From the IMG/VR virus record IMGVR_UViG_2563366974_000015: a DNA stretch of 8,078 nucleotides; one strand, 5' to 3'. Shown one piece after another: positions 1-7,528 of the stretch. Each line of letters opens with the position of its first letter. The stretch's first letter is position 1. Position numbers and translations under genes: made by a program. The notes under the pieces are model-generated. The model saw only the letters and a program-made list of their open reading frames with translations. It was not told where the DNA came from and ran no database searches. Source of the stretch: a virus. Lineage: Duplodnaviria; Heunggongvirae; Uroviricota; Caudoviricetes.

Positions 1-2301
1 GATAAGGTGTGGACCTATAACCGCAGTAATGTGGTGATGCCGGATGATGGCGCGCCGTTCCGCTACAGCTTCAGCGCCCTGAAGGACCGCCATAATGCCG
101 TTGAGGTGAACTGGATTGACCCGAACAACGGCTGGGAGACGGCGACAGAGCTTGTTGAAGATACGCAGGCCATTGCCCGTTACGGTCGTAATGTCACGAA
201 GATGGATGCCTTTGGTTGTACCAGTCGGGGGCAGGCACACCGAGCCGGGCTGTGGCTGATTAAAACGGAACTGCTGGAAACGCAGACCGTGGATTTCAGC
301 GTGGGCGCAGAAGGGCTTCGCCATGTGCCGGGCGATGTTATTGAAATCTGCGATGATGACTATGCCGGTATCAGCATCGGTGGTCGCGTGCTGGCGGTGA
401 ACAGCCAGACCCGGACGCTGACGCTCGACCGTGAAATCACGCTGCCATCCTCCGGCACCACGCTGATAAGCCTGGTTGACGGTGAGGGTAATCCGGTCAG
501 CGTGGAGGTCCAGTCCGTCACCGACGGCGTGAAGGTGAAAGTGAGCCGTGTTCCTGACGGCGTTGCTGAATACAGCGTGTGGGGGCTGAAGCTGCCGACG
601 CTGCGCCAGCGCCTGTTCCGCTGCGTGAGTATCCGTGAGAACGACGACGGCACGTATGCCATCACTGCCGTGCAGCATGTACCGGAGAAAGAGGCCATCG
701 TGGATAACGGGGCGCACTTTGACGGCGACCAGAGCGGCACGGTGAATGGTGTCACGCCGCCAGCGGTGCAGCACCTGACCGCCGAAGTCACCGCAGACAG
801 CGGGGAATATCAGGTGCTGGCGCGATGGGACACGCCGAAAGTGGTGAAGGGCGTGAGCTTCCTGCTTCGCCTTACCGTGGCAGCGGACGACGGCAGTGAG
901 CGGCTGGTCAGCATGGCCCGGACGACGGAAACCACATACCGCTTCAGGCAACTGGCGCTGGGGCGTTACACGCTGACGGTCCGGGCGGTAAATGCGTGGG
1001 GGCTGCAGGGCGATCCGGCATCGGTATCGTTCCGGATTGCGGCACCGGCAGCGCCGTCTCGTATTGAACTGATACCAGGGTATTTTCAGATAACCGCGGT
1101 CCCACATCTTGCGGTTTATGACCCGACGGTGCAGTTTGAGTTCTGGTTCTCGGAAAAACGGATTACGGATATCAGGCAGGTTGAAACCAGAGCCCGCTAT
1201 CTTGGCACGGCGCTGTACTGGATAGCCGCCAGTATCAATATCAAGCCGGGTCATGATTATTACTTTTACGTTCGCAGCGTGAACACCGTTGGCAAATCGG
1301 CATTCGTGGAGGCTGTTGGTCGGGCGAGCGATGATGCGGAAGGTTACCTGGATTTTTTCAAAGGCCAGATAACCGAATCCCATCTTGGCAAGGAGCTGCT
1401 GGAAAAAGTCGAGCTGACGGAGGATAACGCCAGCAAACTGGAGGAGTTTTCGAAAGAGTGGAAGGACGCCAGTGATAAGTGGAATGCCATGTGGGGCGTC
1501 AAAATTGAACAGACCAAAGACGGCAAACATTATGTCGCGGGTATTGGCCTCAGCATGGAGGACACGGAGGAAGGCAAACTGAGCCAGTTCCTGGTTGCCG
1601 CTAACCGTATCGCGTTTATTGATCCGTCTAATGGCAACACAAGACCAATGTTTGTTGGTCAGGGCGATCAGATATTCATGAACGACGTGTTCCTGAAACG
1701 CCTGACGGCTCCGACCATTACCAGCGGCGGTAATCCTCCGGCATTTTCCCTGACACCGGATGGGCGGCTGACGGCGAAAAATGCCGATATCAGCGGTAAC
1801 GTGAATGCGAACTCCGGGACGCTCAACAACGTCACGATTAACGAGAACTGTCGGGTTCTGGGAAAACTGTCCGCGAACCAGATTGAAGGCGATCTCGTTA
1901 AAACAGTGGGCAAAGCTTTCCCCCGGGACTCCCGTGCACCGGAACGGTGGCCATCAGGGACCATTACCGTCAGGGTTTATGACGATCAGCCGTTTGACCG
2001 GCAGATTGTTATTCCTGCAGTGGCATTCAGCGGCGCTAAACATGAGAGAGAGCATACTGATATTTACTCCTCATGCCGTCTGATAGTGCGGAAAAACGGT
2101 GCTGAAATTTATAACCGTACCGCGCTGGATAATACGCTGATTTACAGTGGCGTTATTGATATGCCTGCCGGTCACGGTCACATGACGCTGGAGTTTTCGG
2201 TGTCAGCATGGCTGGTAAATGACTGGTATCCCACAGCAAGTATCAGCGATTTGCTGGTTGTGGTGATGAAGAAAGCCACCGCAGGCATCAGTATCAGCTG
2301 A
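1..2301 (+). CDS. J: Host specificity protein J (tail tip / central fibre), C-terminal ~767 codons; 5' end lies upstream of the window
   Basis: Frame 1 is open from nt 1 (the ORF track starts at an internal GTG at 7) to TGA 2299-2301. The translation has a fibronectin-III-like stretch ([23 protein letters not shown]) and a lambda-J-like C-terminus ([32 protein letters not shown]). It sits immediately upstream of lom and stf as in lambda. Recognised from memory, no search run. Confidence 0.88.
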
Positions 2302-3032: not shown

Positions 3033-4619
3033 ATGGCAGCAGTAAAAATCTCAGGTGTGCTGAAAGATGGTGCGGGAAAACCAATACAGAACTGCACTAT
3101 TCAACTGAAGGCAAAGCGTAACAGCACCACGGTACTGGTGAACACGGTGGCCTCTGAAAATCCGGATGAAGCCGGGCGTTACAGCATGGATGTTGAGTAT
3201 GGTCAGTACAGCGTCACCCTGCTGGTTGAAGGTTTTCCGCCTTCACATGCCGGGACCATTACCGTCTATGAAGGTTCCAGACCAGGTACGCTGAATGATT
3301 TTCTCGGTGCCATGACGGAAGATGATGTCATGCCGGAGGCATTGCGTCGTTTTGAGGCAATGGTGGAAGAAGCGGCACGCAACGCCGAAGCCGCCTCTCA
3401 GAGCGCAGCAGCGGCAAAGAAATCCGAAACTGCAGCGGCATCATCGAAGAACGCGGCGAAAACCTCAGAAACAAATGCAGCTAACAGCGCACAGGCGGCA
3501 GCGTCCTCGCAGACTGCATCGGCAAACTCCGCGACAGCAGCCAAAAAATCAGAAACCAACGCGAAAAATAGCGAGACAGCCGCAAAGACGAGCGAAACCA
3601 ACGCAAAGTCCAGCCAGACGGCAGCGAAAACCAGCGAAACGAATGCCAAAGCCAGTGAAACTGCGGCAAAAAACAGCCAGGTTGCAGCAGCCCAAAGCGA
3701 GAGCGCGGCAGCCGGTTCTGTGACTTTAGCAGCTGGATCAGCAACTGCTGCGGCTAACAGCCAGAAAGCTGCGAAGACGAGTGAAACTAACGCAAAGTCC
3801 AGCCAGACGGCAGCGAAGACCAGCGAAACGAATGCCAAAGCCAGCGAAACTGCGGCGAAAAACAGTCAGGATGCAGCAGCCCAAAGCGAGAGTGCTGCAG
3901 CCGGTTCTGCAAGCGCGGCGGCTGCTTCTGCCACTGCATCAGCCAACAGTCAAAAAGCAGCAAAAACCAGTGAAACCAACGCAAAGGTGAGCGAAACAGC
4001 GGCTGCGAACTCAGCGAAAGCATCGGCAGCAAGCCAGACGGCAGCTAAAGCAAGCGAAGATGCAGCCAGAGAGTACGCAAGCCAGGCTGCGGAGCCGTAT
4101 AAATATGTCTTACAGCCGCTGCCTGATGTGTGGATACCATTTAACGATTCACTGGATATGATTACGGGCTTTTTGCCATCATATAAAAAGATTGTTATTG
4201 GTGACGACGAAATAACGATGCCTGGCGACAAGATTGTTAAGTTTAAACGTGCATCGAAAGCAACCTATATTAACAAATCTGGTGTGCTGACAGAGGCTGC
4301 CATTGATGAGCCACGATTTGAACGTGATGGCCTGCTTATTGAGGGGCAAAGAACTAATCTTCTGCTTAATTCAACAAATCCATCTAAATGGAATAAGTCA
4401 GGCAATCTGGAACTCACAGAAATATCCACGGATTCTTTTAATTTTACTTATGGCAGATTTACTGTACAAGATTCGCTTATTGGTACGAGAAAAGCGATTA
4501 ACATCGTCAGGCTGTCTTCGAGTACAGGGGGGGATGTTACTTGTGATGAAGAAAAGGAGGTCACTATATGCTGTGGAATAAAAAGTGAAGAAGATAATAG
4601 GGGCGGTTGTATTTTATAA
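3033..4619 (+). CDS. stf: Side tail fibre protein Stf: lambda-like N-terminal attachment domain plus fibre repeats; C-terminal part appears truncated or disrupted
   Basis: ATG 3033 is preceded by GGAG at 3024-3027; the ORF track begins at an in-frame GTG at 3027. The N-terminus MAAVKISGVLKDGAGKPIQNCTIQLKAKRNSTTVLVNTVASENPDEAGRYSMDVEYGQYSV closely matches lambda Stf as remembered. The central region is Ala/Ser/Thr-rich with SETNAK-type repeats. The ORF ends at TAA 4617-4619, but the same frame reopens after a second stop (TAG 4632-4634). Confidence 0.8.
   Translation: MAAVKISGVLKDGAGKPIQNCTIQLKAKRNSTTVLVNTVASENPDEAGRYSMDVEYGQYSVTLLVEGFPPSHAGTITVYEGSRPGTLNDFLGAMTEDDVMPEALRRFEAMVEEAARNAEAASQSAAAAKKSETAAASSKNAAKTSETNAANSAQAAASSQTASANSATAAKKSETNAKNSETAAKTSETNAKSSQTAAKTSETNAKASETAAKNSQVAAAQSESAAAGSVTLAAGSATAAANSQKAAKTSETNAKSSQTAAKTSETNAKASETAAKNSQDAAAQSESAAAGSASAAAASATASANSQKAAKTSETNAKVSETAAANSAKASAASQTAAKASEDAAREYASQAAEPYKYVLQPLPDVWIPFNDSLDMITGFLPSYKKIVIGDDEITMPGDKIVKFKRASKATYINKSGVLTEAAIDEPRFERDGLLIEGQRTNLLLNSTNPSKWNKSGNLELTEISTDSFNFTYGRFTVQDSLIGTRKAINIVRLSSSTGGDVTCDEEKEVTICCGIKSEEDNRGGCIL
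3582..3909 (+). repeat. In-frame tandem direct repeat inside stf (two 139-bp copies, 189-bp period)
   Basis: Copy 1 (3582-3720) and copy 2 (3771-3909) align base for base with about ten mismatches. Both encode AAKTSETNAKSSQTAAKTSETNAKASETAAKNSQ.AAAQSESAAAGS. Shorter SETNAK-type units recur from about 3400 to 4070. Confidence 0.85.
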
Positions 4620-4805
4620 GACCATGATGGTTAGGAGGTCAGGTTTTCAGTAGGTACTGCACGCATTAACTCAACAATTGTAATTGTTAGCAATAGAAGT
4701 GATGCAGGCCGTGTTATAGCAAAGTCTGTTAAAGATGATGTAACTGGCTGGATATTTTTTGAGGCTACAATAAATGCACATAAAACAGAAAACACGGTTG
4801 GTGGG

Positions 4806-5411
4806 ATGGTTCAGTACGCTCCTGTAAAAGGTTCAGGTACAGCATCTGGAGACTATCTGGATATCGCAACTCCACAAGTGGAAGGTGGATCAAGTGCTTC
4901 GTCATTTATTGTAACTGATATAACTGCAAGCACTCGCGCAAGCGATATGGTGACAGTCCCAATCAAGAATAACCTTTATAATCTTCCTTTTACGGTTCTT
5001 TGTGAGGTACATAAGAACTGGTATAAAACGCCAAATGCAGCACCGCGTGTTTTTGATACCGGCGGTCATCAAACCGGAGCGGCTATTATTCTTGGCTTCG
5101 GTCGTTCAACAGATTACGACGGATTTCCTTATTGTGATATAGGTTTGGCTAACAGACGGGTAAACGAAAACGCATCGCTTGAAAAAATGGTTATGGGGAT
5201 GCGTGTAAAGTCAGATCAGTCTACGTGCTCAGTAAGTAACGGGCGTATATCCAGCGAAAAGAAAGCCACATGGTCCTATATTCAGAACTCCGCAATTATC
5301 CGTATTGGAGGCCAGACTACAGCCGGGTTGCGTCATTTATTTGGTCATGTCAGGAATTTCAGAATATGGCACAAGGCATTGACTGATGCTCAGATGGGGG
5401 AGTCAATCTAA
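4806..5411 (+). CDS. LamG/concanavalin-A-like domain protein; probably the detached C-terminal receptor-binding part of the tail fibre
   Basis: 201-aa ORF from ATG 4806, but the same frame is stop-free back to 4635 with no canonical start codon in that stretch, and it is the stf frame. The C-terminal signature IRIGGQTTAGLRHLFGHVRNFRIWHKALTDAQM is typical of LamG-like jelly-roll lectin domains. The ribosome-binding site at 4806 is weak (GGTTGGTGGG directly abutting the ATG). Low-GC region. Confidence 0.5.
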   Translation: MVQYAPVKGSGTASGDYLDIATPQVEGGSSASSFIVTDITASTRASDMVTVPIKNNLYNLPFTVLCEVHKNWYKTPNAAPRVFDTGGHQTGAAIILGFGRSTDYDGFPYCDIGLANRRVNENASLEKMVMGMRVKSDQSTCSVSNGRISSEKKATWSYIQNSAIIRIGGQTTAGLRHLFGHVRNFRIWHKALTDAQMGESI

Positions 5412-5692
5412 TGAAAGATTTAACACTCAAATTTGCAGACAGGGCCGACTTTTCGGCCTTTATGGATAGCATTGGCTATTATGATGACGAGTCGATGCAG
5501 GATGATATTCTTATTGACGTGATAGGTAACGTGTACAAAGAAACCGGAGAACTGACTGAAGATGGCGAACCGGTATGTGTTAAGGAAGATGGATATTTTG
5601 TAAACGTGCGCATCATTAATGATGCAAAAAAATCGTTAATATTCGATGAATACGCGGTTGTAGTTGAACATCAACTTCGTGGCTGGATGTGA
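5411..5692 (+). CDS. Hypothetical small acidic protein (93 aa); possible tip-specific assembly factor
   Basis: The start overlaps the upstream stop by one base (TAATG at 5409-5413), suggesting translational coupling. Acidic composition (many D/E). No family recognised. Confidence 0.55.
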   Translation: MKDLTLKFADRADFSAFMDSIGYYDDESMQDDILIDVIGNVYKETGELTEDGEPVCVKEDGYFVNVRIINDAKKSLIFDEYAVVVEHQLRGWM

Positions 5693-5701
5693 GGGAGACA
5701 A

Positions 5702-6406
5702 ATGGCTACATCGACAGTAATTCCAGGAGACATCACCACGTTAAAGGGAGATGTCAGTAAAGCCAAGGAAGATATTTCCTCAATTAACGGAAAAGTATCA
5801 ACGCTTCAGGCTGATATGACCAGTGCAAAGCAGGATATCAGCACCAGATACACAAAAACTGAAGTTGATAATAAGCTGAAAAACAAACTGGAAGTGAACG
5901 CTCTGGAAAGCGGTCGTTATGGTGGAGATTTTTACCCGTTGACTGGCCGTGAAGCGTTTTATTTGTGGGGATTGGGCACGACTACAGCGGCGGCAAACCT
6001 TTATCTTAATCCTGACCCCGCAATTTCGTCTGTGCTGCGGTCAACATCGTCTATCCGCTATAAACATTCAGTAGAGACAATAGATTCAGAGCACGCCGAT
6101 CTCATTTTCAGGATGCGCCCTGTGTGGTACAGGTCACAATGCGAAAATGACAGGCGTGACTGGGGATTCTACGGATTGATTGCCGAGGAAGTAGGAGAAA
6201 TTGCCCCTCAGTTTGTACACTGGCGACCAGCTAACGAAGATGATGCACCGGAAGCTATTTCCAGCAATGGCCTTGTTGCCGAAGGTGTAATGTACGAACG
6301 TCTGGTTGTTCCACTGATTCACCATATCCAGAAGCTGACTGAAAGAGTTGATGAACTTGAGTCAGAATTAAAGTTGTTATCCGTTTCCCGAAGCGATATC
6401 GGATAA
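5702..6406 (+). CDS. Short tail-fibre-like protein: N-terminal coiled-coil segment plus C-terminal intramolecular chaperone (peptidase S74-like) domain
   Basis: Shine-Dalgarno GAGGGAG at 5691-5697 precedes ATG 5702. Candidate catalytic Ser-x-x-Arg-x-Lys motif SSIRYK (residues 116-121, nt 6047-6064), followed by WGFYGLIAEEVGEIAPQFVHW and GLVAEGVMYERLVVPLIHHIQKLTERVDELESEL, which match the conserved blocks of self-cleaving C-terminal chaperone domains of phage fibres and spikes (endosialidase / T5 L-shaped fibre type). The N-terminal region has heptad-like spacing. Confidence 0.72.
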   Translation: MATSTVIPGDITTLKGDVSKAKEDISSINGKVSTLQADMTSAKQDISTRYTKTEVDNKLKNKLEVNALESGRYGGDFYPLTGREAFYLWGLGTTTAAANLYLNPDPAISSVLRSTSSIRYKHSVETIDSEHADLIFRMRPVWYRSQCENDRRDWGFYGLIAEEVGEIAPQFVHWRPANEDDAPEAISSNGLVAEGVMYERLVVPLIHHIQKLTERVDELESELKLLSVSRSDIG

Positions 6407-6416
6407 AGGAGGAGTA

Positions 6417-6710
6417 ATGGATATAACACCTTTCCTTCATGCGCTTTGTGCTGTGGCTGCGCAGCTACTGATTGGTCTTTTTACCGGGAACTGGGCTTAC
6501 GGGGCGATAGCTGGTTGTACGTTCTTCATTGCGCGTGAACACACCCAGGCAGAATATCGCTGGATTGAAATGTTCGGGCATGGCAAGCGAATGAATATGC
6601 CGTGGTGGGGCGGTTTTGATCCGCGCGCGTGGGATGTGGCAAGCCTGATGGATTTTGCTGTGCCGGTGGTGGCGTGTCTGCTGGTCTGGCTGTTGGTTAA
6701 TCGTGGGTGA
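6417..6710 (+). CDS. Hypothetical small inner-membrane protein (97 aa, 2-3 predicted transmembrane segments)
   Basis: Strong Shine-Dalgarno AGGAGGAG at 6407-6414 before ATG 6417. Hydrophobic stretches FLHALCAVAAQLLIGLFTGNWAYGAIAGCTFFIA and LMDFAVPVVACLLVWLLV flank a charged loop. GC content is higher than in the upstream cassette. Confidence 0.55.
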   Translation: MDITPFLHALCAVAAQLLIGLFTGNWAYGAIAGCTFFIAREHTQAEYRWIEMFGHGKRMNMPWWGGFDPRAWDVASLMDFAVPVVACLLVWLLVNRG

Positions 6711-6720
6711 AAAAAGGTGA

Positions 6721-6840
6721 GCTGTATATGCAACGGAGGAAGAAACCTCGTTGCTGGAAGCCTGGAAGAAGTATCGGGTGTTGCTGAACCGTGTTGATAC
6801 GTCAACTGCACAGGATATTGAATGGCCAGCACTGCCGTAG
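6721..6840 (+). pseudogene. tfa: 3' remnant of the tail fibre assembly gene tfa (last ~39 codons, no start codon)
   Basis: The frame opens just after TGA 6718-6720 and reads [39 protein letters not shown], ending at TAG 6838-6840. This matches the conserved C-terminal end of lambda-type Tfa proteins as I recall it. No upstream coding sequence or start codon is present. Confidence 0.7.
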
Positions 6841-6937: not shown

Positions 6938-7528
6938 TTATATGTCAGGTGTCTGAAGTTTTGCTTTGGCTCTTAAAATGGTTTGCCGCGAGGTTTTGAA
7001 TTCCCGGGCAATGGCACTTATACTTACACCTGACTTAATTCGTTCGAATACCACCTGTTTCTGTTCTTCATTTAACACAGGTGGTCGACCAAAACGTTTC
7101 CCTGCGCCGCTGGCTCTTACTATCCCGGAATGAGTGCGTTCAAGTAAAAGGTCTCGTTCAAATTCAGCGACTGCTGAAATTACGTGCATCATCATTTTTC
7201 CTGTTGGACTGGTCAGGTCAATGCCCCCCAATGCTAAGCAATGCACTCTGATACCTGTTTCGGTCAGTTGTTCCACTGTTTTCCTGATATCCATTGCATT
7301 ACAACCAAGGCGATCCAGTTTTGTCACAATCAATTGATCACCACATTTCAGGCGAGCAAGCAACCGGTTAAAACCAGGACGCTCACTGGTTGCTGCTGAG
7401 CCGCTAATGTGTTCTTCGATTATTTGCTGAGGTTTGATTTTAAAACCTGCACTTTCGATTTCCCGGCGTTGATTTTCGGTGGTCTGATCCAGCGTTGATA
7501 TCCGACAGTAAGCAAAAATTCGAGACAT
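6938..7528 (-). CDS. pin: Serine recombinase of the DNA-invertase/resolvase family (Pin-type, as found beside tail-fibre genes in Rac/Qin prophages)
   Basis: 196-aa ORF with N-terminal catalytic-serine motif [13 protein letters not shown], the KLDRLG motif and a C-terminal helix-turn-helix ([19 protein letters not shown]). Length and sequence match my recollection of PinR/PinQ. It is convergent with the fibre genes and adjacent to the tfa remnant. Confidence 0.88.

Follow-up and report, generated by a model that had tools for sequence, protein, structure and literature searches.

The interruption of the side tail fibre gene (stf) in the prophage of Escherichia coli KTE5 is, on comparison of sequences, very probably a chimeric consensus artefact of the KTE5 draft assembly and not a property of the DNA. 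The stretch analysed here, of 8,078 nucleotides and referred to as the window, is an exact substring of scaffold KB732234.1 of that assembly (GCA_000350665.1). Within it, a patch of 361 nt (4454-4814) appears to have been put together, column by column, from reads or alternative sequences of two intact fibre alleles, one of the type carried by E. coli S88 and one of the type carried by WP8-S18-ESBL-07 (hereafter WP8). The mosaic composition of the patch, the coordinate register in which it is mixed, the gaps and draft state of the surrounding assembly and the fact that the sequence is unique are all directly observed; that the mixing was done in software and that KTE5 has two copies of the gene, we infer. 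The real KTE5 genome most likely carries an intact fibre gene or genes.

The window represents the tail end of a lambdoid E. coli prophage. It encodes the C-terminal two thirds of J, followed by lom and stf and, 3' of stf, by three small genes, a Pin/Gin-type serine invertase on the minus strand, and ydfK. The order J, Ail/Lom, stf places the last gene in the position expected of Stf in a lambdoid tail module, and the phage_tail_N domain (PF08400) is recognized at the N terminus of the S88 homologue (E 1e-66) and is also recorded for the 528-aa product of the window. As stf of S88 (L001 6033-8411) is a single CDS of 792 codons, collinear with positions 3033-5411 of the window (plus strand), the two ORFs in the window are halves of one gene. 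The upstream half (3033-4619, plus strand) was identified by exact look-up as ELC04431.1, a 528-aa 'phage tail fiber protein' of E. coli KTE5, and the downstream half (4806-5411, plus strand) is annotated in GenBank as ELC04432.1, hypothetical protein WCE_04869, whose 201 aa are identical in sequence to the C terminus of S88 Stf. The stf of WP8 is likewise a single CDS of 792 aa, the same length as in S88, and the proposal of the first-pass annotation, that both ORFs are parts of one Stf of about 790 aa, is thus borne out by both homologues. In the shaft of the gene (3525-4058), 21-nt units encode SETNAK-like repeats, and a 189-nt stretch is duplicated in tandem (3548-3736 and 3737-3925, 84% identical).

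The one uninterrupted ORF of about 790 codons that is expected of an Stf is broken in the window by two in-frame stops, TAA (4617-4619) and TAG (4632-4634). These were correctly placed by the first-pass annotation, as were the runs GGGGGGG (4527-4533), GGGG (4600-4603) and TTTT (4644-4647). In S88, WP8 and all listed members of the protein cluster, Stf reads through both positions. Past the second stop, as had also been observed, the stf frame is open from 4635 up to the terminal TAA that ends at 5411, and over these 777 nt it contains no stops, versus 14 and 20 in the remaining two frames. This is coding sequence, as the earlier reading held, and not chance openness, being the C-terminal 259 codons of the 792-codon ORF in the homologues. 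The segment 4635-4805 indeed has no ATG, GTG or TTG in frame, ATT and ATA being the only candidates present. For a truly two-part fibre, or for programmed readthrough of both stops, the downstream open frame is the one point in favour. Such a reading, already considered unlikely in the first pass, is almost certainly wrong: none of the homologues ends at 4619, all of them being one 792-aa protein, the segment 4635-4805 lacks a start codon, and the stops are confined to one assembly.

Two compensating single-base indels or homopolymer errors, for example at 4600-4603 and 4644-4647, had also been proposed, shifting the frame out and back. The +1 frame is, as claimed, open over both stops (4582-4650, bounded by stops at 4579 and 4651), and homopolymer runs do exist there. 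However, the window is collinear with E. coli S88 without a gap over all 8078 bases, in the same stf frame throughout, and over the stf gene there is no length difference from WP8 either. Both stops are in-frame substitutions relative to S88, where the codons are GAA and TAT, the WP8 codons at the same sites are TTT and GGG, again with the stf frame kept, and the residues between the stops are homologous in the stf frame (D-H-D-G versus H-H-D-G). The alignments to intact homologues reveal no frame switch. Thus, neither an indel nor homology that resumes in another frame, the marks of a frameshifted pseudogene or of a homopolymer error, is found, and the gapless alignment together with the in-frame homology between the stops refutes the compensating-frameshift idea, to which we leave practically no chance. 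Chimerism also accounts for the G4 and G7 runs. From the earlier error reading, sequencing or assembly error survives as a leading option, while the homopolymer or indel mechanism is to be abandoned; the G7 run is no native, error-prone homopolymer.

The composition of the patch carries most of the argument. Over the entire window there are 164 mismatches to S88, and 109 of them fall inside 4454-4814; from 4814 to the end of stf, the window and S88 do not differ at all. For about 100 nt on either side of the patch, where S88 and WP8 differ strongly as well, the window is purely of the S88 type. In the patch, the window is 109 differences away from S88 and 89 away from WP8, and S88 and WP8 are 198 away from each other. 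As 109 and 89 add up to exactly 198, the patch holds no base that is missing from both alleles: at the 163 sites where S88 and WP8 agree, the window agrees with them in every case, and at the remaining 198 it has the S88 base (89 sites) or the WP8 base (109 sites) and never a third one. All the bases over the 361 nt are therefore attributable to two real parents, and none is private. The parent of origin switches approximately 100 times along the 198 informative sites, compared to approximately 98 switches expected for independent choice. The differences from S88 include 31 transitions out of 109 (28%), are evenly spread over the three codon positions (30/40/39) and affect all four S88 bases (T 40, A 30, C 20, G 19), a substitution pattern that looks like random mixing and not like evolution. 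One bias was found, at sites where the choice was between G and C, at which G outnumbers C by 17 to 3 in the window, the other base pairs being near even. A deterministic rule of base choice, such as alphabetical order or the resolution of IUPAC codes, was sought in the patch and none was found beyond this 17:3 bias, which may be a trace of the base weighting of the consensus step.

Adenine mutagenesis of the diversity-generating retroelement (DGR) type was considered separately and rejected, as the changes hit all four bases and not adenine positions only; no template repeat was found in the window, and no reverse transcriptase is annotated in the homologous stretch of S88.

The features that make the gene appear broken are explained by this composition. 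The first stop (TAA, 4617-4619, plus strand) is a chimeric codon, consisting of the T of WP8 TTT and the AA of S88 GAA, and so is the second (TAG, 4632-4634, plus strand), consisting of the TA of S88 TAT and the G of WP8 GGG. The G7 run (4527-4533, plus strand) results from mixing GGGTTTG of S88 with GGAGGGG of WP8. The longest G run in the parents is 3 in S88 and 4 in WP8, and neither parent has a stop. Of 20,000 simulated trials of random per-site mixing of the two intact alleles, 72% yielded one or more stops and 34% two or more. Chimeric k-mers by which the patch can be recognized are the 32-mer TTTTATAAGACCATGATGGTTAGGAGGTCAGG and, across the G7 run, ACAGGGGGGGATGTTACTTG. As two intact alleles account for every base of the patch, the damage did not arise by mutation, and the reading of the gene as a decaying fibre gene in a cryptic prophage, one of the two that had been favoured at first, finds no support.

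The register of the mixing provides the second line of evidence. The Stf proteins of S88 and WP8 are clearly homologous in the patch, sharing for example GDEKYVTISCRV, and their proper alignment requires a one-codon insertion at about 4515 and a one-codon deletion at about 4710, with an offset of 3 nt between the two. With WP8 superimposed on S88 by raw coordinates, ignoring this offset, 190 of 190 window bases are explained. In the homologous register, 63 of the 190 fit neither parent, and at other shifts 41 to 56 do not; with the shifted registers serving as a control, zero unexplained bases is far from what chance would give. A process driven by homology would mix the sequences in the homologous register, and mixing by column number points instead to software that built an ungapped pile-up or consensus. 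A switch density of about 100 and adherence to raw coordinates are together incompatible with homologous recombination.

The two parental types belong to a known kind of natural variation. S88 and WP8 are deeply diverged over 4352-4931, the core of this stretch differing at 198 of 361 positions with a compensating indel of plus and minus one codon, and over their last 480 nt the two genes are approximately 92% identical. The divergent stretch lies inside a head-spike-fibre-type domain (NF048003, amino acids 435-636 of the intact protein, 4335-4941, plus strand), which takes in both the hypervariable stretch and the patch. This NCBIfam domain is the significant match here; the 'LamG-like tip' proposed earlier did not hold up, as the Pfam match to Laminin_G_3 is below threshold (E 0.03). 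Modelling of the last 198 aa with AlphaFold from a single sequence gave no reliable fold (pLDDT 33). The divergent stretch is a cassette-like, hypervariable, receptor-binding stretch of lambdoid Stf with at least two deeply diverged alleles, and this biology is already familiar. Of the two natural allele classes, both intact and of the same length, the S88 type is 68.6% identical to the patch of the window, and the second type, carried by WP8 and phage ev243, approximately 76%. The variable part of the WP8 type often occurs in drafts as stray contigs of 520-610 nt (P0031-P0033).

The sequence of the patch is, at the same time, unique. No match above 76% was found in 5,426 complete E. coli genomes or in 50,697 phage records, and the best match for the translated patch among 5.8 billion proteins, in a search of limited sensitivity, is 58% identical and of the WP8 type. 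Exact look-up among approximately 15 billion proteins places the broken 528-aa protein on one contig only, and a 32-mer spanning both stops is absent from 2.9 million viral contigs and 241 million metagenome records. Thirty independent loci contain a 32-mer taken from flanking sequence of the S88 type, 28 nt past the downstream end of the patch. In 29 of these the patch is of the S88 type, with 0-16 mismatches in 361 (at most 4.4%), and the 30th, L033, follows the S88 type until it meets the end of an insertion sequence present in many copies; the patch of the window is at least 109 mismatches away from each of the 30. All the listed members of the 90% protein cluster, too, have pure S88-type residues in the patch.

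These data bear on the possibility that the hypervariable patch is a third, naturally occurring allele, turned into a pseudogene by two nonsense mutations in a decaying prophage. High variability is natural in this region, the two known classes being unlike at 198 of 361 positions, and stf is truly inactivated elsewhere, for example by the insertion-sequence end at about 4567 in L033. However, a third allele would be expected to possess private bases, and the window has none at the 163 agreeing sites and no third base at the other 198. Were the window the common ancestor of the two classes, one would expect approximately 27 sites to have been hit twice, and 0 are seen. Furthermore, there is no excess of transitions or of third-position changes, and among natural S-type patches the variation does not exceed 4.4%. 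We regard a third allele as highly improbable.

Another alternative is that the KTE5 sequence is physically real, a dead fibre gene that resulted from exchange between alleles of co-resident prophages, for example through gene conversion accompanied by patchy mismatch repair. Many E. coli genomes do harbour more than one fibre allele of this family, in up to 4 places per genome, their variable parts are met as stray small contigs in drafts, and natural recombinant tracts are present nearby in the same gene, all of which would fit such a history. Against it, approximately 100 exchanges would be needed within 361 nt, between sequences that differ at 55% of positions; these would have to track raw coordinates and not homology across the one-codon offset, which no recombination or repair process does; and the patch is present in no other genome searched. 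Exchange of this kind must be rated as very unlikely. Slighter still are the prospects of the most radical version, in which a process copying alternately from two co-resident fibre alleles, in strict positional register, left a base-by-base mosaic physically in the KTE5 DNA; if true, this would be a new way of scrambling a receptor-binding domain.

The assembly context agrees with the preferred reading, of a consensus artefact. The window begins right after a gap of 10 N, and a gap of at least 2089 N is found 870 nt further upstream. Between these gaps lies an 869-nt contig (L004 2090-2958), 100% of the S88 type, that duplicates positions 472-1340 of the window, within J. With two versions of one J segment in the scaffold, repeated prophage sequence was not resolved there, and so the draft, gapped setting with unresolved repeats in which a chimeric consensus is expected is in place. 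Within J itself, S88-type and WP8-type states are interleaved over 780-1278 (plus strand), with 4 private sites nearby, and the best natural match for 740-1320, among 12,444 J copies from complete E. coli genomes, is 95.9%. This is probably a second mixed stretch; its divergence, lower than that of the patch, also allows for natural mosaicism. In the shaft of stf, a tract at 3632-4139 (plus strand) is WP8-like at 25 of 27 informative sites, and the sequence after it is purely of the S88 type. Real recombination may have produced this tract, because in three natural loci (L015, L019, and L030) a WP8-like tract is likewise joined to S88-type downstream sequence, at approximately 98%. For stf 3600-4453, the best natural match is 97.8%, and none is exact.

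How the consensus may have been made can be outlined. KTE5 probably possesses two lambdoid prophages with different fibre alleles. The simplest account of the limits of the mixing is that the second copy would be S88-like outside the patch and of the WP8 type within it. At each differing column of 4454-4814, one of the two bases would have been taken, almost independently of the neighbouring columns, and codons mixing both alleles would have given rise to TAA, TAG and the G7 run, none of them present in either allele. A simple majority over shared reads would not be expected to choose almost independently at neighbouring columns, and a quality-weighted or tie-breaking step would therefore have to be assumed. 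This need and the confinement of the mixing to 4454-4814 speak against the artefact account, which fits best if such a recombinant of S88 flanks and a WP8 patch served as the second parent: in the 5,426 complete genomes none was found, the best candidate reaching 89.7%. The Broad KTE genomes are, we presume, Illumina/ALLPATHS-LG assemblies. Literature searches returned nothing on KTE5 or the assembly accession GCA_000350665.1, and nothing useful on the flattening of ambiguities in ALLPATHS-LG efasta.

In many respects, the case resembles the known errors of short-read consensus that are due to collapsed repeats or mixed copies. Multi-copy prophage sequence adjoins gaps in the scaffold, a stretch of J is present a second time on a stray contig, and the bases come from two real copies, producing a spurious frame that is unique to one assembly. 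It differs from these errors in the unusually fine grain of the mixing, with nearly independent choice at each column, and in that the mixing is confined to the most divergent 361 nt and spares the more similar flanks.

Other systems in which fibre genes are split or switched provide further comparisons. One is the stf of phage lambda, to which the window is similar in the position downstream of J and lom, in the PF08400 N terminus and in the presence of two consecutive ORFs. In lambda PaPa, a frameshift reportedly splits stf into two ORFs; that, however, is a real single-base deletion, whereas the window has no indel and two chimeric in-frame stops. A second comparison is with E. coli stf genes interrupted by insertion sequences. 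In metagenome contig OLUB01000133.1 (L033, positions 1-55), stf is joined, at a junction corresponding to about 4567, to the end of a multi-copy element, presumably IS2-like, that is found in 20,798 places in E. coli genomes. Partial Stf proteins of 512-513 aa cut at the same spot ('...GDEKYVTIS') are encoded on at least 60 draft contigs, which points to a real and widespread lineage with disrupted stf. In both cases the gene is truncated within the same hypervariable domain, but in that lineage the break is a mobile-element junction common to many assemblies, and in the window there is no insertion and the break is unique.

A third comparison concerns the invertible fibre segments of Mu (Gin), P1 (Cin) and e14 (Pin). 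Downstream of stf, the window encodes a second, fibre-like protein of 234 aa (5702-6406) with a Peptidase_S74 intramolecular chaperone domain, flanked by small ORFs without a family match (5411-5692 and 6417-6710), and a truncated remnant of a tail-fibre-assembly gene (6730-6840), which adjoins the Pin/Gin-type serine invertase (6938-7528, minus strand). The invertase and the assembly-gene remnant are what is shared with these systems, and together they look like a relic of an invertible host-range segment. Unlike in those systems, inverted crossover sites bracketing alternative fibre C termini are missing from the window: a search for such sites revealed no gix-like core, the sole inverted repeat being a 16-nt pair with 88% identity, and no alternative fibre C terminus was found on the opposite strand. 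The invertase is unrelated to the stops in stf.

In conclusion, the significance of the broken stf is in data hygiene and not in biology. ELC04431.1 and ELC04432.1, and the 'pseudogene-like' split between them, would be products of consensus error, and the 528-aa ELC04431.1 serves as the representative of its 90% protein cluster. Scans for decaying prophage genes, for recoding signals or for new receptor-binding alleles will meet patches of this kind as false positives. A simple test, reusable elsewhere, is whether the distances from the suspect sequence X to two natural alleles A and B add up to the distance between them, d(X,A)+d(X,B)=d(A,B), with no private bases, and whether they do so in raw coordinates rather than in the homologous register.
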